Source: a virus | Reading direction: 5' to 3' (one strand) | Length of the DNA: 64,000 nucleotides | IMG/VR virus record: IMGVR_UViG_3300027899_001695 | Coordinates: 36,208-100,207 of that record | Shown: positions 3,926 through 33,893 of the stretch, one piece after another | Layout of the letters: each line of letters opens with the position of its first letter | Numbering within the stretch: the stretch's first letter is position 1 | Translations under genes and position numbers: made by a program | Notes under the pieces: model-generated | Told to the model about the DNA's origin: nothing | The model's input: only the letters and a program-made list of their open reading frames with translations | Database searches by the model: none

Positions 3926-4243
3926 ATGGATAAGTATCTTGAATATCTTGTGACTCGTTTAATCGAGTGTATGAGTTTATCGGTTCCGAAGGATAAATTG
4001 GACCAAGTATCGGCATTGATTACACGTCATGCTGCTGAATTGTTAGAACAAGTTAAAGCTTCTAAAGATGCTGAGTTTATTAAAGCCAAATTTTCCAATT
4101 TCATTAATAAAGTACTTAGTACTATAGAAGCACTTGATTTGGCAGAAACGCAGTATAAAGCTGTGCGTAAGTTAGTCTTATCAGAAATTCATGGCTGTTT
4201 GGATATGATAATAATAAATTTGGGGAAAAAAGAAGATGGATAA
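3926..4243 (+). CDS. Hypothetical helical protein
   Basis: ORF with AGGAGG RBS. Confidence 0.6.
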   Translation: MDKYLEYLVTRLIECMSLSVPKDKLDQVSALITRHAAELLEQVKASKDAEFIKAKFSNFINKVLSTIEALDLAETQYKAVRKLVLSEIHGCLDMIIINLGKKEDG

Positions 4244-6428
4244 TAATGAACGACCTGAAGACATGTTTATAAATGACCCAGCACAAGCGGAGGCTATGAA
4301 ACTTAGTTCTCCGTATGTTGCTATGTTTGATGATTACATGAAGAAGGGTGAGGGATTTTATAAAGATATTCCACAAGTAGGGCAAGTACCAGAAGTTCCT
4401 GGATTAGGAGGTGTGGGTGGAGTACCAGAAATTCCTAATATGTTTAAACGTATGGAGAAATCTAGAGAGGTTAAACATTGGGAACAGAAGATAAGAAAGC
4501 AGGGATTATATAATGAATTGAGCCACATGAATGCCTCTCAATTGGATGGAATGATTAATCGTATTGAGAAGGCGATAGAAAATAAATCTACAAAGAGGGT
4601 TACTATGAAAAAACAAAAAGCAATGATTAAAAGCTTTTCTCCTGACTTGAGGAAAGCCTTATTGCGTAAAGGTATGTCTATAGATGATGTTAGGCATGTT
4701 GAAAATGAATTTAAGACTAATCTTCCTCCTGAAGCTATTAATATAATGAATAGTTATGTTGATACTGCGGTTAGGAAAGGTTGGGGCGGTGCTGCAGTTG
4801 GGGGTCTATTAGGAGCAGGTGGTGGCCCTCTTGGGATTGCTATTGGTGCTTATATTGGTCATAAATTAGGCGAAGCTGTTGGTAGAGGGCAAATATCGTC
4901 TAAACAGGCTAAAGTAGCGAAAGAAGCAATGCTTCAGAGGTCACAGAATGAGTTAACAAGCCAAAAGATTATTGATAAGGCATTACAACAATATTTAAAT
5001 GGTACGGCTGCTGCAGGTGGCCCTGCTGCTCCGCCTAGTGTGTCACAACAAATACTGGGTAGAGTAATGGATAGATTCTTGCCACCTAAGACGGCTACTC
5101 CTTCTGCAGGTGCAGGACCGACTGCGAGTACTTCTGGTACTACAAGTGGTGCTGGGTCTGCTGCAGGTGCAAGTTCTAATACAAGTACTGGTGCTCCTCC
5201 GCCTCCTACTGCTGGTGCAGGAGCAGGAGCACCTTCTCCTTCTGCTAGTACAGGGGCACCTTCTGCTGGTGCAGGAGCAGGAGCACCTTCTCCTTCTGCT
5301 AGTACAGGGGCACCTCAGACTGGTGCTAGTGCTGGAGCAGCTCGTTGGCAAGCTAATGTTCAAGCAGGTTTGAAAAGGCAAGCTGCTGCACACAAAGCAG
5401 CACAGACCAAAGCAAATAAGCCAAAACAGTCTACACAACAACCTAGTCAGCAACCTGTAGATGGGGGGGCACCCCCAGGTCCTAAGCCTGTTCTTGGTGG
5501 ACGTAAACAAAAGAAAGTAGAGACACCACCTATAGAACCTGAAGTAACACAGTCAGAAAAAGATGCTTCTAAGAAAGGTAGAATACCTAGGAAACCGAAG
5601 AAACCAATGGATGCAATGAGTGAAGCATCTGCGAGACTTGCTGCAGGAGAGGATGAGGATACTATCATGAAATGGATGTTAGATAATAATATGACAGATG
5701 ACCAAATTGGTCAAGTTATGGAAGAGAGAAATAAACAGGCAATGGGCAAAATGATGAAAGGAGAGGTGAATCCAATGAAACCACAATCACCTATTGAATT
5801 AAAAAAGGCTATTTATAGTGTAAATAGGGCTATAGAGATGATAAAGAAAGAGGCTCCTTGGACTAAGGAAGACCCATCAATGTCTCCTGCTCAAGAACAA
5901 TCTGGCGGAGGAGAAGAGAAAGATATTAAGTGGCTTTCTCATGCATTGGAAGGTGGTGGGCTCGATTCTTTATCTAAACACCCTGTAGTGGGAGAAAATA
6001 TTGGGAATGCTGCTGATAAGGTAGGTTCCAAGTTCTTAGAGAAGATACAATCAATGGGTAAAGAAGGTAGTTTTGACCATGCTGACCCTAAAGCGATTGG
6101 TTTAGCTATTCTTGAATCTATTGATGGTATGGCCAATGATGCTGGTGATGAGAAGATAGGAAAAGCTTGGACAGGTGCAATGGCATCTCTTATTGATAAA
6201 TATGGTAAGAAAGTTGTTGCAGATGTTGCACAAGGTCTTGCTCAAGAAGGTGGACAAGGACAATTCCGTAAAGCAGTTGCTGAACCTATTGGTCCTACGC
6301 ATTATCCTGCCAAAAATAAAAAAACGGCTAAAACAGATTTTGGTGGGCAATCTGAAGTATATGGTGATGGAGCCAATATGGATACAGAGTCACTCACTGA
6401 AAATAGCAAGATGTTAGAAACTGAATAA
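4236..6428 (+). CDS. Putative internal head protein (glycine zipper, low-complexity linker, many hydrophobic-X-K-[SAG] sites)
   Basis: Lies between portal and protease; MEKS, IEKA, LRKA, LRKG, VRKG, IDKA, LKKA, IGKA, FRKA motifs. Confidence 0.55.
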   Translation: MDNNERPEDMFINDPAQAEAMKLSSPYVAMFDDYMKKGEGFYKDIPQVGQVPEVPGLGGVGGVPEIPNMFKRMEKSREVKHWEQKIRKQGLYNELSHMNASQLDGMINRIEKAIENKSTKRVTMKKQKAMIKSFSPDLRKALLRKGMSIDDVRHVENEFKTNLPPEAINIMNSYVDTAVRKGWGGAAVGGLLGAGGGPLGIAIGAYIGHKLGEAVGRGQISSKQAKVAKEAMLQRSQNELTSQKIIDKALQQYLNGTAAAGGPAAPPSVSQQILGRVMDRFLPPKTATPSAGAGPTASTSGTTSGAGSAAGASSNTSTGAPPPPTAGAGAGAPSPSASTGAPSAGAGAGAPSPSASTGAPQTGASAGAARWQANVQAGLKRQAAAHKAAQTKANKPKQSTQQPSQQPVDGGAPPGPKPVLGGRKQKKVETPPIEPEVTQSEKDASKKGRIPRKPKKPMDAMSEASARLAAGEDEDTIMKWMLDNNMTDDQIGQVMEERNKQAMGKMMKGEVNPMKPQSPIELKKAIYSVNRAIEMIKKEAPWTKEDPSMSPAQEQSGGGEEKDIKWLSHALEGGGLDSLSKHPVVGENIGNAADKVGSKFLEKIQSMGKEGSFDHADPKAIGLAILESIDGMANDAGDEKIGKAWTGAMASLIDKYGKKVVADVAQGLAQEGGQGQFRKAVAEPIGPTHYPAKNKKTAKTDFGGQSEVYGDGANMDTESLTENSKMLETE
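5209..5315 (+). repeat. Tandem 54-bp coding repeat (AGAGAGAPSPSASTGAP x2)
   Basis: Two near-identical adjacent copies. Confidence 0.9.
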
Positions 6429-6437
6429 GAGGTAGTT

Positions 6438-6722
6438 ATGGAGCGATTGGCTTCCGAATATGACCCTAAGACAGGGCAGTTTACGTTTACAGTAGGCGAT
6501 GAGTTAACGGCTGAGATATCTCCAGAACAATATGTGGAGTTTATATCTCAGTCAATGATGCTTGTCCAACACGTTGTAGAAAATTACTTTAATGGGTCAA
6601 TGAAGAGGTTTATCAAATCAACTGAGCATGCTCCCTCAATACCCATAGATTCGGCAGATTTAGTAGAAGACTTGGATAAATGGTTGAGACATAAATCAAC
6701 ACATATAGATTTTGGAGCATAA
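6438..6722 (+). CDS. Hypothetical protein
   Basis: ORF with GAGG RBS. Confidence 0.6.
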   Translation: MERLASEYDPKTGQFTFTVGDELTAEISPEQYVEFISQSMMLVQHVVENYFNGSMKRFIKSTEHAPSIPIDSADLVEDLDKWLRHKSTHIDFGA

Positions 6723-9700
6723 TATGACAGAAAGAACTATATTGTTGTCTAGAATTGAACAGATAATGAGACTTGGTAAAAAGAAAGAGCCTACTGTTGC
6801 AGACTATTTAAGTCAGTTTGATATGGATCGGCTTATTGATACAAAGAATCCCGCTAATAATGATTATAGAAGAGAGTTTGTTAATAGTTTCTTTAAACAT
6901 CTTCCTATAGATAGACGACCTATGCTATTACTAGGAAGGTCAGGTCCCCAGGTTCTAGCCTACATTAATACAGACTCCAGTTTAGCCAAAAGACATGCCC
7001 CAGTTATGATAAGATATGAAGCTGCTATGGAAAGACAACTTCCTTTAGTTAGTGTGAAGTTATTTAATGATAAATTTAAAGATATGAGTCAAGTGGCCGC
7101 AAATTTGCAACCTTTTAGTGAAACTAAAGCAAATAATGTCAATAAAGAAGCTTTCATAAATAAGTGGGCAACTAGATTAATTTCTGATTTAAAAGCAGGA
7201 GAATTCGCACCTGATAAATTTATAGGACATGGTTTAGATGAACAAGAGTTAGCAAACCTTCCAACTAAAGTAAAACTTGTTCCAGGAAATAAGAAAGGAA
7301 AAGCAGTAAGAATCCCTAAAGAAGAACGAGAGCATCGACATTTATTACCTAAAGTTGATAAACCATTGGGAAGTGGAAAGCAACCTTTAACCAAATATCA
7401 TCCTCGTGGAGCAAGTGTTCATAATCAAAAGTTATGGAGAGCTATACATCGTGCTTTACAAACACCAGAAGATATAAAGAAATTAAGTATGGAAGTAGTC
7501 AATGCTACTCCGTCTAATCAGAAGTTTTATAGTCCCTATATTGACCCTGAAACTGGGCAATTAAAAGATAGAGTTCCTAAAGATGTAGACCAACAGTTTC
7601 ATCAAGATATGAGAGACCTTATTGAGAAAAAGGGGCAAGAGTTTCATGATAGGTATATAATATCTCCAGAATATGTAGATGATGATGGTACAGTGCATCC
7701 TGCACATCCAGAGTATAATGGAAAAAAGGGGGATAAAAGCAATGCTGGAGAGTGGTCCAAGAAAACACCAGCGGATGTTAAAAGGGCATATTCCCAAGCT
7801 GAAGGAGAAATAACAGGACATCTAGAGACATATAAGGAAGATGAGAAGCTTAAAGAAGATGCAACTATAGATTCAGGAGAAGAGCCTCCCGTAACTCCTT
7901 GGTATGAGCAACTTGGAGTAAAGGTACAACGAGAAGGTCAAGTAAAAAATGCAACAGGTATCTGGACAGATTCAAAAGGTAAGAAATACCGTCTTAAAGG
8001 CGATGAGGTTTATCATCACCCAAAAATTGGTGATATTATTGTACGAAATCTAAATGGAATGAGAACTCGTATTTTTGCTCCAGGTATAAATAGAACCTTT
8101 GTTAATAGTAAAGGTATCCAAGATATTATTAGGATGTATTTTGAACGTAACCTTCCGATACCTAAAGATTATAAACCTTATTTAATAGGGTATGAGGATT
8201 GGAAACAGTTAGCAGTTTTAAGAGAAGAGATTTATCAAGATGATTTAAAAAAGGCAAAAACAGAGAAACAACGTCAGAAACTTACGACTGCTTATGAAGA
8301 TTGGAAAAAGAAATTTAGAGGAGTTAGTCTAAAAGCTAGAGAAGAAGATTCTAAAGAATGGGGAAACCAAGACTTAGAATCGCAGTTACTTAGAGATAAT
8401 ACAGACCCTAAGTTTGATATCAAGCTTAGAGAGTTTCAAGATTTACAACATGAAGGGAATTCAAATGAGATACAAAGAAAGGATTTCTATGATGGTTTTA
8501 CACCTGCTCAAAAGGACTTCTTTGACCAATTTAAGAAGAATCTTACTACTAAAATAAAAGCCCTTAAACAAAAATTTGATGCAGAACAAGACTTAAATAT
8601 ACCTAATCCAATGGATATTAATTTTAGTCCATTAGATGCAGGAGAGGCTAGACTTCCTTATATGAGTAATAAGGACCGTTTACAGTCTGATAGCGATAGA
8701 GAGTACCAAGCTCTTAAAGACAAAGCTGCTGAAAGTATAAAAAATACACCTGCCTTTCAAGAGTTCCATAAATGGTCTGCTTTACATGGAGAATTAGCAA
8801 GTAAGGGGTACAAACATGTAGCATTAGATGATGCTGCAGAGGCTGCTTATGACAAAGCTTTATTAGATAGAACCGAAGCAGAAGAAAAGGCTGCGGAAAA
8901 GAAACAAAAAAATAGATACAAGAAGTACAAGGAAGCGGACGAAAATAAAAAAGGTGCTATAGGAACAACAGAAAGTAGCCAAGGAAAGAGTAACCCTACA
9001 CTTACTAAATTTGAAAAGCGTCAATTAGAATGGTTAAAAGCTAAAAAAGATATAGCAAGAACTGCGGTTAAACTTGAATATCATAAAGCTTTCGCTAAAA
9101 TATTACAAGAAGCATCTCCTACTAAAGAACGTAGAATTTCGCATGTTGATAATTTACTAAGTGATGACGGTACTTATACATATGATGCAACTGTTGATTC
9201 AGATGGACAAATAACAGATATTAGGAATAAAAAGCAACTTAAGCCTAATCAAATAAAGGCTTTTAAAGAGGCCAATAGTCCATCTATGTACAAACGTTAT
9301 AATCCTGCAAGTGCTGCAGCTTATGATAAAGCTTATGCAGATAGAATGAAAAGTATGCAAACAAAAGATATTAAAGATATTAAATCAGATAGGGCAAAGA
9401 AAGTAGGCATAGAGCCTCTTTCAGATAACCCAGACCGTGGTTTTGGAGACCCTAGTCCTCATAGAGATTGGCAAGACAGATTAGATAGAGCTATAACAGA
9501 AGCCATTAAAATTGGTACAGAAACAAAAGATTGGACAGAATTAAACCGATTATACGATGCTTTTCCAAACGAGAAGATGCATTATAGAAATACTCAAGAC
9601 CCACGCAGTAAAAGAAGTGGGGCATATGCAAAACGAGCAAATCTGGCGTTTGATAAGAAAAAACAAGAAGAAGCTGCAGCCAATGCTGCTAAAGCTGCTG

Positions 9701-10521
9701 CTAATGTACCTCCTCCACCTCCTCCAAAAGATAAAACTGCAGAACGAGATTCCGCTATTCGTTGGGAAATTGAAAGAGCCAAAGAAACTTCTAATGCAAG
9801 CGCAAAAGAATTTGCTCTTGAAGCGAGTCAAAAAGGTATAAGAGACCCAAAAGAAAAACAAAAATATATTGATGATGGAATGGACCAGGCTTTTAATAGA
9901 GAGCTTATGTATATTGGAAAGAAGTTTGGTGTAATTATTACGCCCTCTGCGCCTATAAAAACTAAACCTGAGAAACCGATAAAATCGCCTGAAGGTAAGA
10001 GACGTGAAAAGGACCCTACTAGACCTTGGGTAGAAGAGAATAAAAATAAAGTAACTTATAAGATAGAGGAACTTCCACAAACTGTTAAAGAACAAACAAA
10101 AGTTAAAGATAAAGCACGTATTAATGCTGGAATTAAACATCTTGAAGATAAAACAAAGAAGCTTACTGCTAAGAAAGTTGAAGCACCTGTTCCAGAAGAG
10201 GAGGTACCTGAGAAACCTAAAACTTGGCAAGAACGGCTAGCTACTATAAAGGCTGAACGAGCAAGTTCAGCACCTGCTTCTACCCATGTGGAAACGAAAA
10301 AGAAAGAGACTACTTCAGAAGTTGGAGTCACTAAACAACCTAAAACTTGGCAAGAACGGTTAGCTACTATAAAGGCTGAACGAGCAACGGCAACTCCTCC
10401 TATTCCCAAAGCTGAAAAAGGGCTGACATGGCAAGAAAGATTAGCTAATATAAAGGCTGAACGAGCAAAAAGTACTTCTAAGCAGACTTGGCAAGATAAG
10501 TTATCTACTATAGGGAATTAA
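6712..10521 (+). CDS. Large Lys-rich putative internal virion protein (about 1269 aa)
   Basis: Long ORF; N-terminal amphipathic helix; four C-terminal TWQERLA repeats. Confidence 0.6.
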   Translation: MEHNMTERTILLSRIEQIMRLGKKKEPTVADYLSQFDMDRLIDTKNPANNDYRREFVNSFFKHLPIDRRPMLLLGRSGPQVLAYINTDSSLAKRHAPVMIRYEAAMERQLPLVSVKLFNDKFKDMSQVAANLQPFSETKANNVNKEAFINKWATRLISDLKAGEFAPDKFIGHGLDEQELANLPTKVKLVPGNKKGKAVRIPKEEREHRHLLPKVDKPLGSGKQPLTKYHPRGASVHNQKLWRAIHRALQTPEDIKKLSMEVVNATPSNQKFYSPYIDPETGQLKDRVPKDVDQQFHQDMRDLIEKKGQEFHDRYIISPEYVDDDGTVHPAHPEYNGKKGDKSNAGEWSKKTPADVKRAYSQAEGEITGHLETYKEDEKLKEDATIDSGEEPPVTPWYEQLGVKVQREGQVKNATGIWTDSKGKKYRLKGDEVYHHPKIGDIIVRNLNGMRTRIFAPGINRTFVNSKGIQDIIRMYFERNLPIPKDYKPYLIGYEDWKQLAVLREEIYQDDLKKAKTEKQRQKLTTAYEDWKKKFRGVSLKAREEDSKEWGNQDLESQLLRDNTDPKFDIKLREFQDLQHEGNSNEIQRKDFYDGFTPAQKDFFDQFKKNLTTKIKALKQKFDAEQDLNIPNPMDINFSPLDAGEARLPYMSNKDRLQSDSDREYQALKDKAAESIKNTPAFQEFHKWSALHGELASKGYKHVALDDAAEAAYDKALLDRTEAEEKAAEKKQKNRYKKYKEADENKKGAIGTTESSQGKSNPTLTKFEKRQLEWLKAKKDIARTAVKLEYHKAFAKILQEASPTKERRISHVDNLLSDDGTYTYDATVDSDGQITDIRNKKQLKPNQIKAFKEANSPSMYKRYNPASAAAYDKAYADRMKSMQTKDIKDIKSDRAKKVGIEPLSDNPDRGFGDPSPHRDWQDRLDRAITEAIKIGTETKDWTELNRLYDAFPNEKMHYRNTQDPRSKRSGAYAKRANLAFDKKKQEEAAANAAKAAANVPPPPPPKDKTAERDSAIRWEIERAKETSNASAKEFALEASQKGIRDPKEKQKYIDDGMDQAFNRELMYIGKKFGVIITPSAPIKTKPEKPIKSPEGKRREKDPTRPWVEENKNKVTYKIEELPQTVKEQTKVKDKARINAGIKHLEDKTKKLTAKKVEAPVPEEEVPEKPKTWQERLATIKAERASSAPASTHVETKKKETTSEVGVTKQPKTWQERLATIKAERATATPPIPKAEKGLTWQERLANIKAERAKSTSKQTWQDKLSTIGN
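10214..10518 (+). repeat. Four coding repeats (K)TWQERLATIKAERA
   Basis: aaacttggcaagaacgg.tagctactataaaggctgaacgagcaa repeated, with degenerate copies. Confidence 0.85.
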
Positions 10522-10523
10522 TA

Positions 10524-12029
10524 ATGGAAGAAGTAATGTATACATATAAGTCTGGGGAAAATGAGGTAACTTTACAGGAACAAAATGGTAAATATACGGT
10601 TATTACGAATGGAAGTCCTGTACTATCTACTTCTGTGTTCCCAGATGCTTTAAATAAGTACTATCGTGATATTTCTACTATTTCTGATGCCCAGCAAAGT
10701 GGTCATGATATGGCTATGACCTTATTTGGTAATGAGGTAGTAAAAATAAATAGAGTTATTATTCCTCGACTGGCTCAATTGGGCCATTTAAAGGAGTCTA
10801 GGTATGTTAAAATGCTAACAAAGCAGTTAGAAGATGTTATGAAGTTTGTACCGCCAAGAGAGGCAGGGGCATGGATTCCGTCTCCAAATGATGGTGATAT
10901 GAATCAAGGCACAAATGAGATTAATTTACATCCTAGTAGAGAAAGCGGTTATAAAGTAAAGAAAGTTAAACTACGCCAAGCTGATACAGGTATGCAACCC
11001 TATAATGAGTTTAATGATTTACCGCATTCCGAAGTAGAGAGGCCCACTAAGATATCTAATACATATCAACAGAAGGTTAAAACTAGAGAACAAAGACCTA
11101 TTGAGGGAGATTACTTTGAACCCGCCTATTTAAGCAAGGAGTACCAATATAATACAGATTGGACTCCTGAAGAAGAAGCGTTTGCTAAGAAATATTATGA
11201 AGAAGAAAGCGGAGAAGGTAGCTGGGATAAGTTAGATGATTGGACTAAAGGAATTGAAATTGCTAGACCCACACACGAAAATATGACCAAAGATGACGTT
11301 ATAGGAACTTTAAGAGATAAATATGTTAAACCTGTTTCAAAAGATAAGGTATTAAATACAATACCTTATAAAAACTTACCTCCGCCTATTTTAAATATGC
11401 GTAAGTCTAGAGTAGCAAGAGATGATGCCTTTGATTTAGGCGAGAAGGTAGGTGTTGATTTTAATAAGGTAGGGTTTGATGATTGGATGGAAGGGTTAAA
11501 GATAGAGCATGAGCATAAAGATGTAGTGCATGATGACCATCTTATGATTGCTAAGATTGCGAATGCCCATCTTAAAGAAGACCCTAAGTATTACACAAAG
11601 CTTAAGAAATATGTAGAAAAGAGTTTAAGAAAAGAAGCAGAGAAGATGACAGAAGGCGAACAAGCACATCAGAATATGGGATTGGAGAATAAACAGCGTA
11701 ATGGCAGGCCTCAACCACCTATTAGTGGTGGAAAGATGGAGAAAGCCGCATTTTCTCCAGATGCCCCAAAGGTTGTAACTGGCGAGACACAGGAACCTAT
11801 TGAAATTCGTAAGGAGGGAATCGGTAGTTTTTCAATTGAAAATGCAGATTATAATCCTGAGATTGACAACAATGTAGGTCGTCCAAAGAAACTTGTTTTA
11901 CGCCAACAACTGGAGGACGGAGGCGATGTGGAAGAAAATAAAGGAGAGTTCTTTAAGAACTCAAAGGATTTTTATTCATTGAAGTCTTGGATTAGTTCAA
12001 TTATCGAGGAGAAACATGGCAGAGTATAA
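10524..12029 (+). CDS. Putative internal head protein with DUF5661-like domain
   Basis: GLKIEHEH...DDHLMIAKIANAHLKEDPKYYTKL matches the DUF5661 pattern as recalled. Confidence 0.65.
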   Translation: MEEVMYTYKSGENEVTLQEQNGKYTVITNGSPVLSTSVFPDALNKYYRDISTISDAQQSGHDMAMTLFGNEVVKINRVIIPRLAQLGHLKESRYVKMLTKQLEDVMKFVPPREAGAWIPSPNDGDMNQGTNEINLHPSRESGYKVKKVKLRQADTGMQPYNEFNDLPHSEVERPTKISNTYQQKVKTREQRPIEGDYFEPAYLSKEYQYNTDWTPEEEAFAKKYYEEESGEGSWDKLDDWTKGIEIARPTHENMTKDDVIGTLRDKYVKPVSKDKVLNTIPYKNLPPPILNMRKSRVARDDAFDLGEKVGVDFNKVGFDDWMEGLKIEHEHKDVVHDDHLMIAKIANAHLKEDPKYYTKLKKYVEKSLRKEAEKMTEGEQAHQNMGLENKQRNGRPQPPISGGKMEKAAFSPDAPKVVTGETQEPIEIRKEGIGSFSIENADYNPEIDNNVGRPKKLVLRQQLEDGGDVEENKGEFFKNSKDFYSLKSWISSIIEEKHGRV

Positions 12030-15141: not shown

Positions 15142-15812
15142 TGGATAGTAGAAATAAGATATTAGAAGATTTATATTTTCTTCTTGTTAAAGCAGAAGAT
15201 GCGGAAGAAATGATTGAAGAAGAGGCAAAGCCTGTTAAACCAAAGACAGAAATGCAACATCATATTCTTGATAGAGTAAAACATTTTAGTAAGGAGATGG
15301 ATAGAATTCTAAAAGAAGAACAGAACATACAGAGTTTCTTACAGGGTTACTCACGATTAGCTTTGTTGTCTAAGTCGTATACTACTGATGAGGTAGGCGA
15401 CTTATATGAAACAGCTAAGAGAGTTAATCTCTTTAAAGAGTTTAATATTGCCGAACCTATGGAACAAACAAGGCTTGATAAGGTAATCTTTATAGATAAC
15501 ATTGCTCATCATTTACATCAGTTCAAGGAACCTAATGGTGCAGCGGTGTATAAGCAATTAGATAAACTTGCAGATATATCAAAATCTGCGGGAGAAAAAG
15601 AAAGAGATGATAGGTTACTTATTCTTGATAATCCTATGAATTTAAGAAAATTAGCCAAGATGAATAATCTTGAGATAATACAGAAAGGAGCCATGCTTGA
15701 TAGAGGGAGTTCTTTCTGGAGACTATTTGAGAAAGGTCTAAAAGTAGGTGTAGAAAGAATGTCGGATACAGAATTAGTAATTCTTAGAGAATGGTTGTAT
15801 TCGAAAGTTTAA
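15141..15812 (+). CDS. Hypothetical putative head-associated protein
   Basis: ORF coupled to upstream gene; N-terminal helix ending LLVKA. Confidence 0.55.
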   Translation: MDSRNKILEDLYFLLVKAEDAEEMIEEEAKPVKPKTEMQHHILDRVKHFSKEMDRILKEEQNIQSFLQGYSRLALLSKSYTTDEVGDLYETAKRVNLFKEFNIAEPMEQTRLDKVIFIDNIAHHLHQFKEPNGAAVYKQLDKLADISKSAGEKERDDRLLILDNPMNLRKLAKMNNLEIIQKGAMLDRGSSFWRLFEKGLKVGVERMSDTELVILREWLYSKV

Positions 15813-15840
15813 TAGTTGAATGTAACGTGGTAAAATTAAG
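15806..15840 (+). promoter_or_regulatory. Putative late promoter, copy 2
   Basis: AGTTTAATAG-N15-TAAAATTAAG. Confidence 0.6.
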
Positions 15841-15865
15841 TTAGTAATTAGGGAGGTACAGTAAT

Positions 15866-16642
15866 ATGTCACAAAGTGTATGGGATTCTGATTTTGGTGC
15901 TGTGTTTAAGCAAAGGTATGATATTCTTAAAGGAATAGATATAAAAAAAGGTGTCATGGGTGCTGTAGGTGGTGCAGTAGGCCATATGGTTGACCCAACT
16001 GGTGTAGTTGGTCCTGCGATTGGTGGTGGTCTTGGTGCAGAGTTGGATAAATCGGAGAAAATGGAGAAAGAAAAGATAGATAAGACAGGTTATATGGATA
16101 ATGAGTATAATAGATTAAATCCTATTGGTGGAGATAAACCTACTGCGACAGGGTATGAGCATGGTGATTCTCTACCGCCTAATCGGCCTCAACCATATAA
16201 TAGCCCACGTAGAAAACAAGATGTAAATGATGAAGATTTAGGTGATTTAAGAGTAGAGAATATGAATAAATCGCTTTATAAAGCTATTCGTTCTGTTGAT
16301 AGGGTTCTTAAAGAACTTAGAGTCGTAGATACAGGTCTTAAAGGAGAACGGGTAGGAGAGATACGCCACGACTCCAATCCTAAAGGTAGTTCTGGTGGAG
16401 GTACAACTGCTCCTAGACCCAAAGAAAGAAAATTGCCGATAAAGAAAGAAGAAGAGTTTGCTATGAGTATGAATAAGTCACTTAATAAGTCTATTAAGTC
16501 TGTTACTAAGATGCTTCATAAGCTTGATTCTTGTGGTGGTTCTACTGCTGGTTTAAATATTAAAAATGTTAAGGCAAAGAAGGATGGTGGAGGCGTATAT
16601 CCTTCAAAAACTCCTCCGAAGCCTAAAACAAGGAAGGCATAA
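15866..16642 (+). CDS. Putative internal head protein (glycine zipper; two MNKSLxKxI helices)
   Basis: GGAGG RBS; repeated helix motif. Confidence 0.55.
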   Translation: MSQSVWDSDFGAVFKQRYDILKGIDIKKGVMGAVGGAVGHMVDPTGVVGPAIGGGLGAELDKSEKMEKEKIDKTGYMDNEYNRLNPIGGDKPTATGYEHGDSLPPNRPQPYNSPRRKQDVNDEDLGDLRVENMNKSLYKAIRSVDRVLKELRVVDTGLKGERVGEIRHDSNPKGSSGGGTTAPRPKERKLPIKKEEEFAMSMNKSLNKSIKSVTKMLHKLDSCGGSTAGLNIKNVKAKKDGGGVYPSKTPPKPKTRKA

Positions 16643-16643
16643 C

Positions 16644-17123
16644 ATGACTGCATGGTATAAAGAACCTAAGTATAACGGTGCTGGTATTATAGAGCAAATA
16701 GACTTAAAGAAAGCTATACCTGCTTTAGCTATGGCTGCCGCTCCTGTAGTTGCTGAAGCTGCAAAACCAGTTGCTCAAAATCTTGGGCAAAGAGCTTCAA
16801 AGCATATAGACAAAAAAGGCATTAATGTTCCTATAACAGGAGTTCCTATTGGACCTAGATTAAAAATTGGCGGGGATAAGAAAATGGAAAAAGAGCTTCC
16901 TACAGATGCTATGACGATGACTAATAAATCCTTAGTCAAATCAATTGACACCTTCCTAATGAGAAAGGGCATTCTTCAGAAGACTGCCAATAAGTCAGGG
17001 ATGGCTCTTGGTTCGTATCAAAAATTGGGCGACCCAGTAAAGAGAATGGTAAACAATAGTGCCACCATTCAATCTCCAGATGTGTGGAGTGCTGGAAAGA
17101 AAACAACTAAAACAAAGGAATAA
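16644..17123 (+). CDS. Putative internal head protein
   Basis: ATG immediately after upstream stop; NKSLVKSIDTFLMRKG motif. Confidence 0.55.
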   Translation: MTAWYKEPKYNGAGIIEQIDLKKAIPALAMAAAPVVAEAAKPVAQNLGQRASKHIDKKGINVPITGVPIGPRLKIGGDKKMEKELPTDAMTMTNKSLVKSIDTFLMRKGILQKTANKSGMALGSYQKLGDPVKRMVNNSATIQSPDVWSAGKKTTKTKE

Positions 17124-17125
17124 GA

Positions 17126-18568
17126 ATGACTGACTTAGATAGCATACGGTATAGGTTAGAATTACTATTAACCAAAGCTACACCTATGTCTGAATATGAT
17201 AGGATGATAAATGAACCAGACTTTGGTGCAGATATTGGTGGTATTCCTAACTTTTCTTCTTCTTCCGCAAAATCTAGAAAACCCAAAGCTCCTAAAATTC
17301 CAGTAGCGGAAGAGGGTGAAGTACAGCCGTATGTGTCTAATAGACAAAAGAAAGCAGAGAAGAGACGAAAAAGACAAGCAAAATTAGACGCATTATTTGG
17401 TCAGTTTGTTGACCAAGAACAACAAGGGCTTCCTCCTAATCCTAAATTAAAAGGTCAAATAGACAAATATCTTAGAAGAATGTTTAAGGTGGATGACTTA
17501 GATAAGGAATTAGCAGGAATGTCTCCTGAGGACCCTAATTATGCATCTACTCAAGATAAGAGAGACATGGCTCATAAGTTATGTGCAATTCGTGTTAATG
17601 CGGAGAAAGCAAAAGCCAGAACAAGTATGGGGCATAAAATGGAGAAAGCTTTATGGGGGGGAGACCCAAATGCTGTTCCAGAAGAACACCCCAATCAAGC
17701 TAAACAAAGCCAACTTAACTTCTTTCCACAACATGAAAAAGCACCGCCTGTTAGACCCCAGTCAACAAAAGAAGGCCGAAGAGTATCAAGACGCCCTTTA
17801 CGGAACTCGTTAATAAAGAGCATATTTAATTTTGGTAACATGCTTGAAAAAGCAGAAGGACCAAGAGACTATTCACAACCTGTCGATAGTGCTGAGGCAT
17901 TTAAATATCGCAGGAATGTCCCCTCTGAACGAAGGGCTAATTACGAAGTTCTTAGAGAACAGGGTTTTACACCAGAAGAAGCTACTCGCTTAAAGGATTG
18001 GAAACCTGGGCCTTTAAGGACTATCATCCAGAACAAAGATAAACCCAATAGGGGGTTAGACCCTGAATGGATTGATGACCCACAACAGAAAATGGATAAA
18101 GAGTTTGAGTTACTGGATGATTATAAAAATGCGGGAATAAAGAAAATTCCAGGAATGGAACCAATTGATGCAAATGAAGCACAAAGACTAAATCAGTATT
18201 ACCAACAAGTAGGTAAACCACTTATTCATGTACCTACACCAGAAGAATTTCAATCTCAAATGTTACAATACAAAGAAATGAAGAGAGAGGGTAAAGCACC
18301 CCCTATGTTTAACAAGGCATTAGCATATTTATTTGATTTAGATATCTCTAAAGCAGGAAATGCTATTAAGGAACTTGAAGACTTTATTAGAGAGTATGAA
18401 GCTACAATTAAATCAAGACCAAAGAACTGGTCACCAAAGGATATAGCTTCGCATACTCGTATGTTAAACAATGCTAAACAGCACTTAGAGGGCTACTATA
18501 AAAATAAACTTGTAGCTCCTGAAGCTCCTAAAATGCCCTTACAACAACAGTTACCTTTGGAGTATTAA
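17126..18568 (+). CDS. Putative internal head protein
   Basis: LLTKA, MEKA, NSLIKSIFNFGNMLEKA, ISKA motifs. Confidence 0.55.
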   Translation: MTDLDSIRYRLELLLTKATPMSEYDRMINEPDFGADIGGIPNFSSSSAKSRKPKAPKIPVAEEGEVQPYVSNRQKKAEKRRKRQAKLDALFGQFVDQEQQGLPPNPKLKGQIDKYLRRMFKVDDLDKELAGMSPEDPNYASTQDKRDMAHKLCAIRVNAEKAKARTSMGHKMEKALWGGDPNAVPEEHPNQAKQSQLNFFPQHEKAPPVRPQSTKEGRRVSRRPLRNSLIKSIFNFGNMLEKAEGPRDYSQPVDSAEAFKYRRNVPSERRANYEVLREQGFTPEEATRLKDWKPGPLRTIIQNKDKPNRGLDPEWIDDPQQKMDKEFELLDDYKNAGIKKIPGMEPIDANEAQRLNQYYQQVGKPLIHVPTPEEFQSQMLQYKEMKREGKAPPMFNKALAYLFDLDISKAGNAIKELEDFIREYEATIKSRPKNWSPKDIASHTRMLNNAKQHLEGYYKNKLVAPEAPKMPLQQQLPLEY

Positions 18569-18597
18569 TATGGAAGAAAGACTGATAGGAGAATGTT

Positions 18598-18876
18598 ATG
18601 AGCCTCCAGACGTTATTGAAGTTGCCAAAGAGAGCAACGCAGAAAAGATACGACACAATAAAGTATATAACGATTGCATTTGGAGCAGTCAGTACAGTTA
18701 TGGACATGTATATAGCGTTCCTGTTCGGAGCAGAGAACTATGTATTGGCATTCACCCTGCTAGGGGTGTCGATTATTCTGACTCTGATTGATAGTGTCCT
18801 ATGGGTCTGGGTCTTGGAACAGATGGGAAGGAAAAAAGTGGAGCATGGAAAAAGAAATGGAAAGAGGAAGGAATAG
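18598..18876 (+). CDS. Two-TM membrane protein (holin-like)
   Basis: Two hydrophobic segments and a highly basic C-terminus. Confidence 0.45.
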   Translation: MSLQTLLKLPKRATQKRYDTIKYITIAFGAVSTVMDMYIAFLFGAENYVLAFTLLGVSIILTLIDSVLWVWVLEQMGRKKVEHGKRNGKRKE

Positions 18877-18879
18877 AAT

Positions 18880-19248
18880 ATGGATTGGCACGATGTAGTA
18901 GCAATAGTATCGCCTATTATGACTATATTTATATTTGTAATTGGTGGTCTTGTATCTTATTTTACTATAATTGGGGATATGAAAAATAGACTGACGAAAT
19001 TGGAGACTCAAATGCAACCATTTTGGAATTTAATAGAGAGAGAACTTCCAAAGATTATCCATTCCCCACATACACCAGAAATAGATGCCTTATTAGAGAA
19101 AATGATAGAGGGCGTATTAACTAGAGACGAGGCGATAGACCTTAAATTTAAATTAAAAGAAGAGATGGAGATACCTGATGTGGCTAAGAAATTAGCCATA
19201 GTACTGATAATAGCGAGATTGGATTCATTAATAAAGGGGGTTAAATAG
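18880..19248 (+). CDS. Membrane-anchored protein
   Basis: N-terminal TM segment followed by coiled coil. Confidence 0.55.
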   Translation: MDWHDVVAIVSPIMTIFIFVIGGLVSYFTIIGDMKNRLTKLETQMQPFWNLIERELPKIIHSPHTPEIDALLEKMIEGVLTRDEAIDLKFKLKEEMEIPDVAKKLAIVLIIARLDSLIKGVK

Positions 19249-19249
19249 A

Positions 19250-19582
19250 GTGGACTGCTATACTGTATTCGACACACTTGATATTATAACATTTATAATA
19301 CTGTGTATTACTAGTTGGTATTCTTATAAAATATATAAGTTATTACCAGCACAAATGGTAACCTTTTTATTTATTGGATTTATTCTTTCCGCTTTTTTAC
19401 AAATAGGGTTTGTAATAATTAGTTTTATACCTTTAGATGGGGAGTTTTTGATTGTAAATAGATTTATTGGAGAACTGACAGTAGCTTTAAGAGTAATACC
19501 GATTGCTTTTATTATGATTGGAACGATAAATCTGTATAAAGTAGTTACTAAATATATCAATGGAAATGGAGGTATACACTAA
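19250..19582 (+). CDS. Three-TM membrane protein
   Basis: Three hydrophobic segments. Confidence 0.55.
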
Positions 19583-19828
19583 TGGGTTGTTCAACATGCC
19601 CAATTTGCGGAGAAAGAAAACCTTGTCACGATGAGATTTGCTATAAATGTGAGTTGCAAAATCTCGATATAGGTAGAGATAAAAAGGAAGATAAATAAAT
19701 GCCGTTTGGTCTATGTTGTTGTTTCTGGACTAACCTTGGGATGGGATTAGCATTGCTATTTCCTTTTCTTTCTGCCGCAATTTTTTATATAACTAGTAAG
19801 TTCAAGAAACATGAATGTGAGGACGAAG

Positions 19829-20062
19829 ATGCCTGCTGTTAGTCGTGCACAGCATAGATTTATGGGTTTAGTAGCTTCTGGTAAGAAGAAAGTTAAAGGG
19901 CTATCTAAAGAAGATGCAAAAGAGTACATTCGTGGGCAAAAACGAGAAAATCTACCAGAACGAATTGAGAAATTTGTGCGGGAAAAGAAAGAAAAGATGA
20001 ATTTACCATATAATCAAGGAACGTTTGGAGTCTCCCAAGCAGGAGTAGGAGCAAGAATATGA
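19829..20062 (+). CDS. Small basic phage protein (MPAxSxAQxRFMG type)
   Basis: N-terminus MPAVSRAQHRFMG, a pattern recurrent in large-phage head regions. Confidence 0.55.
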   Translation: MPAVSRAQHRFMGLVASGKKKVKGLSKEDAKEYIRGQKRENLPERIEKFVREKKEKMNLPYNQGTFGVSQAGVGARI

Positions 20063-21114
20063 TAAGAAAAGACTTAGGTAACTATATGCGTTGGAAAACA
20101 ATCCAACAACAAGGACCTTGTGAAGGACAATTTGATGGAATATGCCAAGGACCGAAGGGTATTGATGTACCAATGAGGCAACTTGCACATCGTAGACCTA
20201 AAGATAGAGAGGATGCTGAAAGAAGACTTATGTCTATGAACCAAGCTCCCAATAAAAAACCAGGGCATAAACCTAGGTTATATGATTCCTTGAATAGACC
20301 TCATGCGTATCGTCATTTATGCCCTACTTGCCATCTCCATCATGATAACCATATGTTTGATGAAGGCTATCAAGAGCCTAAATGGGTGCTGGATAATAAG
20401 TTTAGGCAGCTTATTAGAGATAGAAATAAGAATAAACAAAAGATAAAAAGGCATGGTGGAATTGTTAAATCTATAAATGACTTTGTAAGAAAATTTGATA
20501 ATACTATTGACCCAAATGAGCCAAGGCAAACAAGGTATTTACATAATTTACCTTCTAGAGACACTCATATTAAATATGAAGACCCGTTTGACCCTGAAAT
20601 TTATATAGAAGAAGAATCAGATGAGGAGTACGTTCCTGAAATGCACACCCAAAATACAAGATTGCCAATAGAAACAAAAAGATATAATAAGATAATGGAT
20701 AGAATAAGCCCTCATGGAAGTCAAAAGATATTGGATAAAATTGTGGGTAAAGAAGATATACCATATGCGAAATCATTATGTAAGTCTATTAATCAATTTG
20801 TAAGAAAGTTTGATACTTCTTATCTACCACATGAAGGAACGGCTAAATATAAACCACAGAACGAAGCAAGAGCAAGAATAAATAACAAGCTTGGACCACA
20901 CTCTATGTCCAATCGTAAGCAAGAAGTAAATCCAGCCTCTTCACCACCTATGGGGTTTGGACAAAAGACTAATCCTGAAGAGCATATAGTACCTAACTAT
21001 GTACCAAAGGATAAGACCCATGCTTTCAAGTATCGTGGTAGGACATATGATGCAAGCAGAATGACACCCGAAGAGCTTTCAGACATATTATCAGAGATGG
21101 AGCAACAGATATAA
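20059..21114 (+). CDS. Putative internal head protein with HNH-like zinc-binding segment
   Basis: C...C, LAH...LCPTCHLHHD; two KSINxFVRKFD repeats. Confidence 0.5.
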   Translation: MIRKDLGNYMRWKTIQQQGPCEGQFDGICQGPKGIDVPMRQLAHRRPKDREDAERRLMSMNQAPNKKPGHKPRLYDSLNRPHAYRHLCPTCHLHHDNHMFDEGYQEPKWVLDNKFRQLIRDRNKNKQKIKRHGGIVKSINDFVRKFDNTIDPNEPRQTRYLHNLPSRDTHIKYEDPFDPEIYIEEESDEEYVPEMHTQNTRLPIETKRYNKIMDRISPHGSQKILDKIVGKEDIPYAKSLCKSINQFVRKFDTSYLPHEGTAKYKPQNEARARINNKLGPHSMSNRKQEVNPASSPPMGFGQKTNPEEHIVPNYVPKDKTHAFKYRGRTYDASRMTPEELSDILSEMEQQI

Positions 21115-22568
21115 TGAAGAATATTCTTCGTGACGTAGAACAAGAAATTGAGAGACGTGGCATCCAAGAAGATGATGTTGCAGATATTGTACAAAGTGTG
21201 CCTGCATTAAAGAATCGGAGGATAGTGGGCGGTTATGCAAGTGTAATTATGGTAGATAGAGAAGGCCACAAGATTACCAAAGAAGCTTTAGTTGATGCTA
21301 CAAAGAGATTTATGGCTGAGATTTATTATCGCCCCATAAATGTGTTTCATTGCTTGACGGGGGAAACTCAAATAAGAACTACCTCAGGTTATAAAAATAT
21401 AGAAGCAATTAAAGTAGGAGATAAGGTTTATACTCATACTGGAAAGAGCCAAAAAGTAACTAAAACGATTATGCATGAAAACAATGGCTTGGCTTTAAGA
21501 TTAGAATTAGAGAATGGTGAAGTTATTCGTGTAACAGACGAGCATCCTATCTTAACTAAACGTGGGTGGGTAAAAGCAGGTGACTTAACTACTCAAGATA
21601 TTCTTCTGCATTTAGAATCGTCTGCTAAAGAATACCATGATAAAGTACGAGGAAAGTCTTTAGTAGGTATATTTGGTATAGAGAAAGCTAAAGAAGTGTT
21701 ATTAAAAATGCGGGGAAAAAGAGAAAGTTATACTGTTACAGAAAAACATAATTCGCAACAAAGAAAAGGGCATACATGGCAAGAAGTATATGGTCATAAT
21801 AAACCTGATTATGGTGGCTGTGTTGGAGAAAAGAACCCTCAATTTGGTAACAAGGGTAGAATAACTGGAGAAAAGAACCCTAACTGGAACAATGGGGCTT
21901 CTCTTATAGCTTATGGAATAGGGTTTACTAAAGAATTAAAAGAAAATATACGAAAAGCGTGTGACAACAGATGCTTCTTATGTGGAGAACAACCCAAATA
22001 TAGTCTTTCAATACATCATATTGATTACAATAAGAAGAATAATCAAGAAGATAATTTAATTGCATTATGTAGAAAGTGCCACATGAAAGCACATAATGAA
22101 GAACGATTGGCTATTAAGAACGGAACTAATATCAAGTCTATCGAGAAGTTTTGGTATACTGGAAAGGTGTATAATCTTGAAGTAGATATAGACCACACAT
22201 ATGTAGGAAAAGGTATTATCTACCATAATTCAGATGTTACAGTTGGAAGGATACTTCCTAAGTGGGCAAACCCAAAAACAGGTCAGATAGTAGTAACGCA
22301 TGTAGATGATACTGGATGGTATATAGTTGCAGAAATTCGTGATGATGTTGAGATTGCTGATAAGGTATGGGAAGAGATAGAAAAAGGAAACTTACGAAGT
22401 TTCTCAATTGCAGGGTCTTCTAAAGATAAAACTGAGGGATATAAAGATGGGAAGTTTATGACTGAAATAACAAAGTTAGACATATACGAAACTACGATTT
22501 GCGAAGAGCCCGTTTGCCCTATGGCTAAATTTGACTTCTTCTATAATCCTAACGAAACTATAATGTAA
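21114..22568 (+). CDS. HK97-family prohead protease, interrupted by an intein
   Basis: IVGGYASVIMVDREGHKI, catalytic His (NVFH), VWEEIEKGNLRSFSIAG (catalytic Ser), LDIYETTICEEP. Confidence 0.88.
   Translation: MKNILRDVEQEIERRGIQEDDVADIVQSVPALKNRRIVGGYASVIMVDREGHKITKEALVDATKRFMAEIYYRPINVFHCLTGETQIRTTSGYKNIEAIKVGDKVYTHTGKSQKVTKTIMHENNGLALRLELENGEVIRVTDEHPILTKRGWVKAGDLTTQDILLHLESSAKEYHDKVRGKSLVGIFGIEKAKEVLLKMRGKRESYTVTEKHNSQQRKGHTWQEVYGHNKPDYGGCVGEKNPQFGNKGRITGEKNPNWNNGASLIAYGIGFTKELKENIRKACDNRCFLCGEQPKYSLSIHHIDYNKKNNQEDNLIALCRKCHMKAHNEERLAIKNGTNIKSIEKFWYTGKVYNLEVDIDHTYVGKGIIYHNSDVTVGRILPKWANPKTGQIVVTHVDDTGWYIVAEIRDDVEIADKVWEEIEKGNLRSFSIAGSSKDKTEGYKDGKFMTEITKLDIYETTICEEPVCPMAKFDFFYNPNETIM
21351..22229 (+). 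mobile_element. Intein with HNH endonuclease in prohead protease
   Basis: CLTGET start, TDEHPILT block B, GEKNPNW repeats, CFLCG...HHIDYNKKNN...LCRKCH, ends VYNLEVD...IYHN followed by Ser. Confidence 0.92.
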
Positions 22569-22579
22569 GGAGAGTAAGA

Positions 22580-22768
22580 ATGACAGTAGCAATAATATGG
22601 ATGATATGTGTAATAATATTACAAGTAGTACTAACAGTATTAATATGGAACAATGATACAAGATTAACAAGACTTGAAAAGACCAAGAAATCTTCTCTTT
22701 TCCCCGCAAAATTAAAAACAAAAGGTAAGGTAATACCCTATGTCGCACCTATTAGAAAGAATAAATAG
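22580..22768 (+). CDS. Small single-TM protein
   Basis: GGAG RBS; hydrophobic N-terminus. Confidence 0.5.
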   Translation: MTVAIIWMICVIILQVVLTVLIWNNDTRLTRLEKTKKSSLFPAKLKTKGKVIPYVAPIRKNK

Positions 22769-23357
22769 TTTAATTATTAAAGACGAGAAAACAAGAGGGC
22801 TAGTTACACCTAAAGATGTAATGGCCAAGCCTCATGCTATGGCTGGTAAAGTACGTAAGAAGCTTCGTAACGTAGAAGGAGGGCCACAAGACGAACCCAT
22901 AAGTCCTACAAAAGAACGACATAGTGGAAAAAAGGGAAAAGTACCTAAGATAATCATGGAATGGGTAAGACGTAATGGTAAGATGTTTATGCGTAGGCGG
23001 ACTATCATGGTAAATCCAGAAGAAGTTGAGTCACATGATAAAGTAGTAAAAGTATATTTGAACAAAAAGCATATAGATAACCCAAGATGGGTAGAGTTTG
23101 CGATGCAGGCCTATGCAAGAAATATTAAATTTACAAAGAAAATGGAAGGGTATGCAGTATGGCATGACCCTGAAGACCCTTTGCAGAAAATAGTATATAA
23201 GTCACATGATGATAAAAAGAAGACTGTACTGGTACATAATACAAAATTATCTGAAAAGGTATTATTGAGAGTATTTAATATTACGCAAAAAGAAAAACAA
23301 GAAGGCCTTGAAGAAGTCGAACAGCAACAAAAGAAACAAGGAATTATTCCTGAATAA
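22740..23357 (+). CDS. Basic hypothetical protein, possibly head-associated
   Basis: N-terminal LLERINSLIIKD helix. Confidence 0.55.
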   Translation: MSHLLERINSLIIKDEKTRGLVTPKDVMAKPHAMAGKVRKKLRNVEGGPQDEPISPTKERHSGKKGKVPKIIMEWVRRNGKMFMRRRTIMVNPEEVESHDKVVKVYLNKKHIDNPRWVEFAMQAYARNIKFTKKMEGYAVWHDPEDPLQKIVYKSHDDKKKTVLVHNTKLSEKVLLRVFNITQKEKQEGLEEVEQQQKKQGIIPE

Positions 23358-32184: not shown

Positions 32185-32201
32185 ACAAGAAAGGAGAGCA
32201 A

Positions 32202-32549: not shown

Positions 32550-32553
32550 AATT

Positions 32554-32600
32554 GGGCGGGTCATTCGTTTAATTACGTTTGACTCGCCCTTTTTTTGTTT
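32554..32600 (+). terminator. Intrinsic terminator
   Basis: gggcgggtca...tgactcgccc followed by T-run. Confidence 0.75.
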
Positions 32601-32602
32601 CC

Positions 32603-32631
32603 GTAGCTTCAAAACCCTGCTGTGGTATACT
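32603..32631 (+). promoter_or_regulatory. Repeated promoter, copy 3
   Basis: gtagcttcaaaaccctgctgtggtatact. Confidence 0.8.
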
Positions 32632-33853: not shown

Positions 33854-33893
33854 GTGAGAGTAGCAAAAATAAACAGATAAAGGAGAGTTAAAG

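Follow-up and report, generated by a model that had tools for sequence, protein, structure and literature searches.

Cut-site-like lysine motifs and a scaffold-like helix recur in putative capsid cargo proteins of an uncultured freshwater phage

How a phage might load a set of otherwise unrelated proteins into its head and set them free there is the question raised by a block of about 19 kb (about 4.2 to 23.4 kb) in the DNA analyzed here. This DNA, which we call the window, comprises 64,000 nucleotides and forms the right-hand part of a 100.2-kb IMG/VR record (IMGVR_UViG_3300027899_001695; genome label G000) from an uncultured freshwater phage. Nearly all of its genes lie on the + strand, and the portal gene is followed by the block, termed the cargo block herein, and then by the gene for the prohead protease, with the genes for the scaffold and the major capsid protein (MCP) 29 kb further on. 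The proteins of the block share two short elements, a lysine motif resembling a prohead protease cut site and an amphipathic helix of 12 to 16 residues (the helix tag), which is located at N termini and at module junctions. From these motifs, their statistics, their conservation, and their place at module borders, we infer cleavage, packaging, and targeting: with a probability of roughly 60%, the block encodes head-internal cargo or ejection proteins that carry cut sites for the S78-type protease together with a scaffold-like loading helix. On this view, some dozen proteins with no other relationship probably enter the capsid and are cleaved into their parts inside it.

A preliminary description of the window had quoted 13 helix peptides, and all 13 were found in the open reading frames to which it assigned them (proteins are named here by the first coordinate of their gene). 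It had also called the carriers otherwise unrelated; BLASTP comparisons among them returned no extended similarity, and the shared element is therefore a short linear motif. Its gene order needed correction, since it had set the protease at the right end of the block and the 22740 gene between portal and protease; the protease lies at 21114-22568 and the 22740 gene beyond it, downstream. Three relatives with the same portal-cargo-protease layout were recovered, namely, G001 (a record of 106 kb, complete), L061 (from a metagenome contig of 69 kb), and L029 (distant and high in GC), and their cargo proteins are mostly unrelated to those of the window or less than 35% identical to them.

Expected motif counts were obtained by shuffling each protein with its composition kept. 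The preliminary description had proposed an enrichment test for [ILVMF]xK[SAG] (written phi-x-K-[SAG] below, with phi for a hydrophobic residue), and the motif was found 53 times versus 29 expected in the cargo block of the window (z 4.4), 44 versus 22 in that of G001, and 29 versus 19 in that of L061. The narrower [LM]xK[SA], often followed by I, L, or V, was found 25 times versus 8.4 (z 5.9), 20 versus 5.4 (z 6.4), and 10 versus 4.5 (z 2.7), respectively. Pooled noncargo proteins had 114 versus 103 sites of the wider pattern in the window genome, 124 versus 108 in G001 (a slight excess), and 18 versus 15 in L061, and their rate of [LM]xK[SA] was about 3-fold lower than that of cargo (about 1.2 versus 4 per 1,000 amino acids [aa] in G000 and G001). 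When all 20 residues were scanned at the cleavage position P1, Lys alone was enriched in all three phages and the reversed pattern was flat, without excess; phi-x-E-[SAG] was not enriched. A Lys-centered count with no prior pattern gave L or M at −2, S or A at +1, and I, V, or L at +2 in cargo, versus E, R, or K at +1 in other proteins. Likewise, K[SA][LI] was enriched in all three cargo blocks and was not when E or R took the place of K. The test was thus positive, specific to Lys at P1, and repeated in two divergent relatives. A second stereotyped motif, absent from the preliminary list, is [KR]MEK followed by S, A, or E, which occurs seven times in the block and once elsewhere in 25,000 residues; the counted gene set holds six copies, where 0.23 was expected, and the seventh lies in the 16644 gene.

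These numbers bear on whether the likeness has any function at all. Lys-rich helical or disordered composition, plus a few internal duplications, might account for it; the tag pairs within the 15866 protein and within the 20059 protein share codons and look like recent duplications, and the general helix pattern is weakly specific. However, composition-keeping shuffles were exceeded with z values of 4 to 6 in two independent genomes and of 2.7 in a third, KMEK appears 6 to 7 times at that low expectation, the reversed pattern and the other P1 residues were flat, and the motifs stand as conserved islands inside variable linkers. We regard this explanation as already disfavored and very improbable.

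The head genes of the window and one small gene related to the scaffold are as follows (a slash in a motif marks the predicted cut).

15-2204, + strand: portal protein, C-terminal part (Pfam Phage_portal, LAGLIDADG_3, Intein_splicing); the gene begins upstream of the window and contains a LAGLIDADG intein.
21114-22568, + strand: S78 (HK97-type) prohead serine protease (Pfam Peptidase_S78, Intein_splicing, HNH).
42136-42363, + strand: 75-aa zinc microprotein; the N-terminal helix of the scaffold is copied in its first 29 aa (42157-42222).
51443-52222, + strand: scaffold protein, called from its position beside the MCP, its acidic core, and its conservation.
52250-53647, + strand: major capsid protein (Pfam SU10_MCP).

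The scaffold, which in a phage of this type is expected to be cut by the protease, is the richest protein of the genome in phi-x-K-[SAG], with 8 sites versus about 1.4 expected (z 5.6). The scaffolds of four relatives come next, each with 4 to 5 sites versus 1.1 to 1.6 at conserved positions, and the five scaffolds together have 26 versus about 7. The N-terminal helix of the window's scaffold (51464-51511) ends in L-A-K/A, and its central helix contains L-K-S-L-L-K-D-I (51866-51910). The MCP has a single site, LRK/G, at aa 40 to 43 (52367-52378), whose N-terminal position and form phi-[RK]-K/[QG] are conserved in eight relatives. The portal has nine sites versus 3.6 expected; its tail carries VEK/A behind a Gly/Pro-rich linker, and the portal tail of G001 likewise has phi-x-K/A after a Gly/Pro linker. 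The scaffold helices, the LRK/G of the MCP, and the VEK/A of the portal tail are thus all present as first noticed. The 42136 microprotein is 73% identical to the N-terminal 22 residues of the scaffold and has Thr in place of the scaffold's invariant P1 Lys; it may be an uncleavable capsid-directed passenger or a decoy.

In the protease, the Peptidase_S78 match (25.9 bits versus a cutoff of 21) lies on the C-extein, and an HNH intein sits directly behind the catalytic His. Intein-free orthologues align over their full length with the catalytic His kept, and the one in G003 has about 191 aa. The preliminary description had counted an HNH-like protein among the payloads; Pfam places this HNH in the protease intein, where it is the intein endonuclease, and HNH was ruled out as cargo. 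Inteins occur in three head-module genes, those of the portal (LAGLIDADG), the protease (HNH), and a 1,200-aa terminase-like protein (G000 31639-35241, upstream of the window); the terminase-like and protease inteins have near-identical blocks in common. The protease intein occupies another insertion site in G001 and G004, and there is none in G003.

HK97 served as a positive control. Residues 101 to 105 of HK97 gp5 read FNK/SL, and gp5 is cut after K103, so that the mature protein begins at S104; two of the internal tags of the window begin M-N-K-S-L, with Met for Phe. The HK97 delta domain has 4 sites in 104 aa versus 0.77 expected (p 0.005), and the mature part 1 versus 0.69. MNK/SL, KMEK/S or KMEK/A, and LRK/G of the window all fit the HK97 prototype (Lys at P1, hydrophobic P3, small P1′). 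By sequence, then, an S78 protease is encoded in the head module, and prototype-like sites are present in its putative substrates.

If the sites serve to separate modules, where do they lie in the polyproteins of the block? The genes compared are listed below.

10524-12029, + strand: 501-aa protein with DUF5661 (Pfam, E 4e-17); KMEK at 11733-11744; fused behind another module in relatives.
12016-15141, + strand: 1,041-aa polyprotein with a leader, HEAT-like repeats, GNAT1, an acidic spacer, GNAT2, and a conserved C-terminal piece (from AlphaFold, Foldseek GNAT and armadillo matches, and alignment).
12145-12183, + strand: helix tag 1 of the 12016 protein (aa 44 to 56), ending the conserved leader.
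12949-12960, + strand: KMEK of the 12016 protein (aa 312 to 315), at the end of the last HEAT-like helix; conserved in five of five homologues (one as KMQK).
13135-13182, + strand: N-K-S-L helix tag 2 of the 12016 protein (aa 374 to 389), immediately before GNAT1 (aa 392 to 567).
13783-13794, + strand: KIMK/A of the 12016 protein, left edge of an insertion of roughly 390 aa (acidic spacer plus GNAT2).
14974-14985, + strand: VVNK/A of the 12016 protein, right edge of the same insertion.
15141-15812, + strand: 223-aa protein; helix tag at the N terminus (15156-15194), plus a conserved domain.
17126-18568, + strand: 480-aa protein; one helix tag at the N terminus (17141-17179) and one within the chain (17804-17854), with KMEK between them (17636-17647).

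In a five-sequence alignment of the 12016 family, pairwise identity was 0.87 at KMEK and 0.68 at the tag, versus 0.50 in the linker and 0.30 in the GNAT beyond; tag 2 stands as an island at 0.68 between flanks at 0.50 and 0.35. The GNAT2 module of the window is a 390-aa insertion between KIMK/A and VVNK/A and is missing from homologues. Compared with P0009, P0008 has an additional GNAT cassette, which is placed exactly between PEMK and EF and ends in a second phi-x-K/EF, and P0007 has the leader, HEAT repeats, tag, and C-terminal piece with no GNAT. The leader and helix of the 12016 family recur on proteins with different bodies; in L061 and P0009 they are joined directly to a 15141-type domain, which in the window is the product of a separate gene. 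The 15141 protein is fused to the upstream polyprotein in L061, P0008, and P0009, and the window copy starts with its own helix. In alignments, Met1 of the 10524 protein falls on aa 218 of G001_12448 and on aa 232 of L061_5910, in both a few residues past a junction helix ending in phi-x-[KQ]-A.

Structure models gave a similar picture at limited confidence. The AlphaFold model of the 12016 protein (mean predicted local distance difference test score [pLDDT] of 47) has two usable domains, HEAT-like at about 125 to 310 and alpha/beta at 392 to 567, and Foldseek matched the latter to GNATs (E 4e-4); GNAT1 is modeled with fair confidence, and the second GNAT-like region is weaker. The last HEAT helix spans 296 to 312 and is followed by KMEK, residues 310 to 391 are disordered except for helix 375 to 390, which is the tag and abuts GNAT1, and KIMK/A and VVNK/A are both in disordered stretches. 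For the 17126 protein, the single-sequence model (mean pLDDT of 54) shows a helix at 4 to 18, a helical domain, a disordered spacer, and a lone tag helix at 227 to 240, with KMEK near the end of helix 139 to 177, where confidence drops. In six of the six KMEK-bearing proteins inspected, a tag-like helix, read by eye from the sequences, stands 11 to 77 residues downstream.

The 12016 family (P0002 to P0005) is 82 to 87% conserved in leader and HEAT repeats versus about 30% in the GNAT (13189-13716), and P0005 has a different GNAT in its place; this is the pattern expected of an effector under diversifying pressure. In G001, a zinc-ribbon/Vsr-like homing-endonuclease gene (L019 755-1528; G001 20755-21528) lies between the GNAT part and the 15141-type domain and appears to split an ancestral polyprotein gene. 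The relatives have a second reusable peptide before modules, P-G-E-x2-P-x-G ... G-x-R-G-G-x-Y-Y (GPRGG type), found three times in G001 (15072-23289) and also in L061 (5910-9182), L029 (6112-9857), and P0008; it has no Pfam match and is absent from the whole G000 genome. This suggests that tags are interchangeable and the Lys site is constant. L029 (109-13498) has K-H-(L)-P-G-x-H-D-Q-x2-H-G about six times at module borders, and its protease is fused to a polyprotein of roughly 1,000 aa that includes a DUF5661-like segment.

The remaining carriers of the two elements are as follows.

4236-6428, + strand: 730-aa cargo or ejection protein with a glycine-zipper segment, Pro/Ala/Ser-rich repeats, and a conserved C-terminal domain; no Pfam or PHROG match.
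4449-4460, + strand: RMEK site in the 4236 protein (aa 72 to 75).
5799-5852, + strand: helix tag with L-K-K-A-I core in the 4236 protein (aa 522 to 539), directly before the conserved C-terminal domain.
6712-10521, + strand: 1,269-aa protein, likely start ATG at 6724, with an N-terminal helix tag (6739-6783).
15866-16642, + strand: 258-aa protein, mostly of low complexity; besides a glycine zipper, it has KMEK at 16058-16069 and M-N-K-S-L helix tags at 16265-16315 and 16472-16525.
16644-17123, + strand: 159-aa protein with DLKKAI (16701-16718), KMEK (16881-16892), and a helix tag (16923-16970).
20059-21114, + strand: 351-aa protein; its two helix tags (20461-20496 and 20770-20811) are nearly identical.
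22740-23357, + strand: 205-aa protein encoded downstream of the protease gene; its helix tag (22749-22784) has the highest score among the N-terminal ones.

The 4236 protein has 12 phi-x-K-[SAG] sites versus 4.6 expected, and its C-terminal domain, conserved in G001 and L061, begins right behind the helix; the 15866 protein has 7 versus 1.7. The 1,269-aa protein is poor in sites (2 versus 5.8), and its C terminus (10216-10521) consists of four tandem copies of a 14-residue helix, W-Q-E-R-L-x-x-I-K-A-E-R-A, in the place of the junction helix that precedes the DUF5661 module in relatives. The carriers had been described as polyproteins; several are not enzyme polyproteins, since the 15866 and 16644 proteins are small and mostly disordered, as the 20059 protein probably is. 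Within the long Pro/Ala/Ser/Gly-rich tract of the 730-aa protein, positions 5220-5315 form a near-perfect tandem repeat of G-A-G-A-P-S-P-S-A-S-T-G-A-P.

The helix comes in two forms, an internal tag with the consensus S-L-x-K-[SA]-I-x-x-[FV] and an N-terminal tag with L-L-x-R-I-[DEN]-x-phi-phi-x-K, which have the same i, i+4, i+7 hydrophobic register and both match the central helix of the scaffold; this helix, L-K-S-[LI]-L-K-D-I, is conserved in five scaffolds. The 6712, 15141, 17126, and 22740 proteins and the scaffold each have an N-terminal helix in their first 20 aa, and G001_15072, which also has one, came out at the top of 180 N termini ranked by a position matrix. The matrix was trained on 13 tags (from cargo-block proteins and the 22740 protein) and the N-terminal helix of the scaffold, with the central scaffold helix left out. 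Run on the whole of G001, it found as its best match the central helix of the G001 scaffold and as its second best the N terminus of a 1,006-aa cargo protein with a C-terminal ADP-ribosyltransferase. The N terminus of the protease (K-x-L-L-x-x-V-E-x-E-I) looked alike by eye and was dropped as a tag when the matrix scan of N termini did not rank it. The expression phi-x3-[LIVM]-x2-phi-phi-x-K was found 8 times versus 2.6 expected in the window and 8 versus 2.4 in G001, and it is less specific than the site. An all-versus-all 14-mer comparison of the proteome found nothing beyond tag pairs within single proteins, the scaffold/42136 pair, and tandem repeats, because pairwise similarity is too weak for a degenerate tag motif to be picked up in this way. 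Codons differ among helix copies of different genes, so that conservation acts on the peptide and not on the DNA, and a repeat or recombination signal at the DNA level was ruled out on this ground. The helix had been described as ending in a Lys cut site; a cut is likely also at its start (N-K/S-L), in which case the helix would head the downstream module.

A helix of this kind might act after injection, by membrane binding or oligomerization in the host, with its nearness to head genes incidental. The helices are amphipathic and basic, and the carriers include glycine-zipper proteins that are probably membrane inserting. Yet the best-conserved copies are in the scaffold, which never leaves the producing cell, the motif stands at module junctions beside protease-type sites, and Lys shows an excess to which Arg has no counterpart; we consider a host-side function unlikely.

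A less improbable but still minority alternative holds that the Lys sites are prohead-protease sites and that the helix serves in recognition or docking or presents the site, with cargo entering otherwise, by binding to portal or MCP. The helix core itself holds a site, L-x-K/S-I, the helix is found in every predicted substrate, scaffold included, and the HK97 delta domain begins with a similar L-I-Q-K-A-I helix. Secondary structure is reported to influence protease specificity in T4 work cited in PMC12991175 (its ref. 35). On the other side, the N-terminal copies lie so close to Met1 (3 to 6 residues) that cutting there would take off next to nothing, unless the helix itself is the propeptide, the 42136 microprotein has the helix without the Lys, and stand-alone KMEK sites occur without such a helix.

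On the reading that we prefer, in which the helix loads cargo, the block proteins would be injected effectors of the polyvalent type and glycine-zipper ejection proteins that ride in the capsid. The cut-site core would be [LM]-x-K/[SA]-[ILV], with the stereotyped forms KMEK/[SAE], DLKK/AI, and MNK/SL, and the predicted grammar is [module]-KMEK/-spacer-(N-K/S-L helix)-K/-[next module], of which the 12016 and 17126 proteins are the fullest examples. The helix would bring the precursor into the assembling procapsid, alongside or instead of the scaffold; the protease would then degrade the scaffold, trim MCP and portal, and separate the modules, which would exit with the DNA at infection.

Several observations weigh against this loading model. 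The helix pattern is generic, with only a modest excess in G001, where noncargo proteins have 26 matches versus 15.6 expected. A hidden Markov model built from eight internal tags recovered no sequences in G000 other than its own seeds and gave no match above noise in the relatives; it was too narrow and was replaced by the matrix and regular-expression tests. The spacing from the helix core to the terminal Lys varies from +5 to +12, so that the terminal Lys may not be a defined site. Part of the [LM]xK[SA] excess is due to the helix core (L-x-K-S-I), and the site and helix signals are therefore not independent. A few single noncargo proteins, mostly small, also have an excess of sites. Both AlphaFold models, which place the motifs in linkers and at or near the ends of folded regions, are of low overall confidence, and some sites sit within likely folded parts, such as one in the coenzyme A loop of GNAT1 and LSK/S in the 15141 domain. 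Finally, one tag per module is not obviously needed if the polyprotein enters the capsid whole, and the helix may be a protease-docking element and not a loading signal. Taken as a whole, the interpretation first offered is supported in part: the site enrichment, the scaffold as an outlier, the HK97 control, and the borders at motifs speak for it, and the HNH payload has fallen away.

The internal proteins IPI-III and Alt of T4 carry a capsid-targeting sequence (CTS) that is removed by the prohead protease gp21 (Mullaney and Black 1996, as cited in PMC9024508 and PMC9026906). As in the CTS, unrelated proteins of the window carry a short N-terminal amphipathic peptide ending in a head-protease motif common to scaffold and MCP, and, like Alt, G001_15072 pairs an N-terminal tag with an ADP-ribosyltransferase. 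Unlike in T4, the protease is of the S78 HK97 type and not of the gp21 type, P1 is Lys here versus Glu in T4 (L/I-x-E), and the tags also stand internally at polyprotein module junctions and resemble the scaffold's own helix. HK97 gp4/gp5 is alike in its Peptidase_S78 family, in FNK/SL versus MNK/SL of the window, and in a delta domain as rich in sites as the scaffold here. HK97 differs in having no separate scaffold and no cargo block, whereas the window has about 19 kb of extra putative substrates between portal and protease and an MCP propeptide of about 42 aa. In work attributed to Duda et al. in 2013, the HK97 protease is said to be targeted to the procapsid by its C-terminal part.

In the giant phages phiKZ and SPN3US, the head protease processes many of the proteins inside the head at a short consensus, and the capsid serves as the store for proteins that are ejected (PMC5694885, PMC7411985, PMC10052503); these phages differ in their T4-like protease, their A/S/G-x-E motif, and genomes of >200 kb, and no reusable junction helix tag has been described for them. 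For DarB of phage P1, an anti-defense effector, the N-terminal residues (about 30) are sufficient to carry a foreign protein into the capsid (PMC9024508), but the phage P1 MCP is cut after Glu and no sequence motif common to the cargo proteins has been reported. The T4 CTS, DarB, and the phiKZ/SPN3US ejection proteins are thus functional analogues that use Glu-specific proteases. Polyvalent proteins are giant multidomain effectors (GNAT, ADP-ribosyltransferase, metallopeptidase) that are encoded with head genes and for which packaging and injection have been predicted (Iyer, Burroughs, Anand, de Souza, and Aravind 2017; PMC5512222); the same study proposes that they are self-processed by an embedded metallopeptidase. 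The 12016 protein resembles them in combining HEAT-like repeats, GNAT1, and a weaker GNAT-like region near head genes, and the relatives carry DUF5661, metallopeptidase, and ADP-ribosyltransferase domains; the set of ATLF-like metallopeptidase, ADP-ribosyltransferase, GNAT, and DUF5661 in the relatives is typical of polyvalent proteins. HExxH is present in G001_18085 (with a Pfam ATLF match) and, by sequence motif only, in L061_5910 and L029_6112. Unlike polyvalent proteins, the block of the window has no HExxH, and its borders carry prohead-protease-type Lys sites and the helix tag.

Searches among deposited phages found no relative of the MCP and nothing for the DUF5661 protein (10524), and the 15141 protein searched alone against viral contigs gave nothing. 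Of the ten larger block proteins, none matched PHROGs and none reached the Pfam curated cutoff, except for DUF5661 in the 10524 protein. For the small conserved genes 2808, 3514, 18880, and 19811, the PHROG matches are weak; relatives of the 2808 exonuclease (L024 and L025) occur in unrelated contexts. Three small membrane proteins lie within the cargo block at 18598-19582; the first is conserved beside the protease in G001 and L061, and one of the three has a weak holin-like PHROG match.

It is not settled how the large polyvalent effectors that phages inject are loaded and processed, and the standing proposal is self-cleavage by an embedded metallopeptidase. The window offers a testable alternative for HK97-type phages, in which the ordinary head protease would act at Lys sites on module borders and a scaffold-like helix is the candidate loading signal; the value of this case lies in its clean comparative evidence and in the scaffold mimicry. 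Cassette insertions at duplicated sites would be a route for fast reshuffling of the effector repertoire in the arms race, and, if the helix is sufficient for loading, it would be a small tag for packaging foreign proteins in HK97-like capsids. More tentatively, HK97-like phages with a separate scaffold may possess a plug-and-play loading code, in which an S78 site plus a copy of the scaffold helix would let a module coassemble with the scaffold core and be freed by the protease. If this is true, effector cassettes could be inserted or swapped at duplicated cut sites with no other adaptation, the packaging and processing of polyvalent proteins would be explained, and a designable tag for protein delivery in capsids would be at hand.

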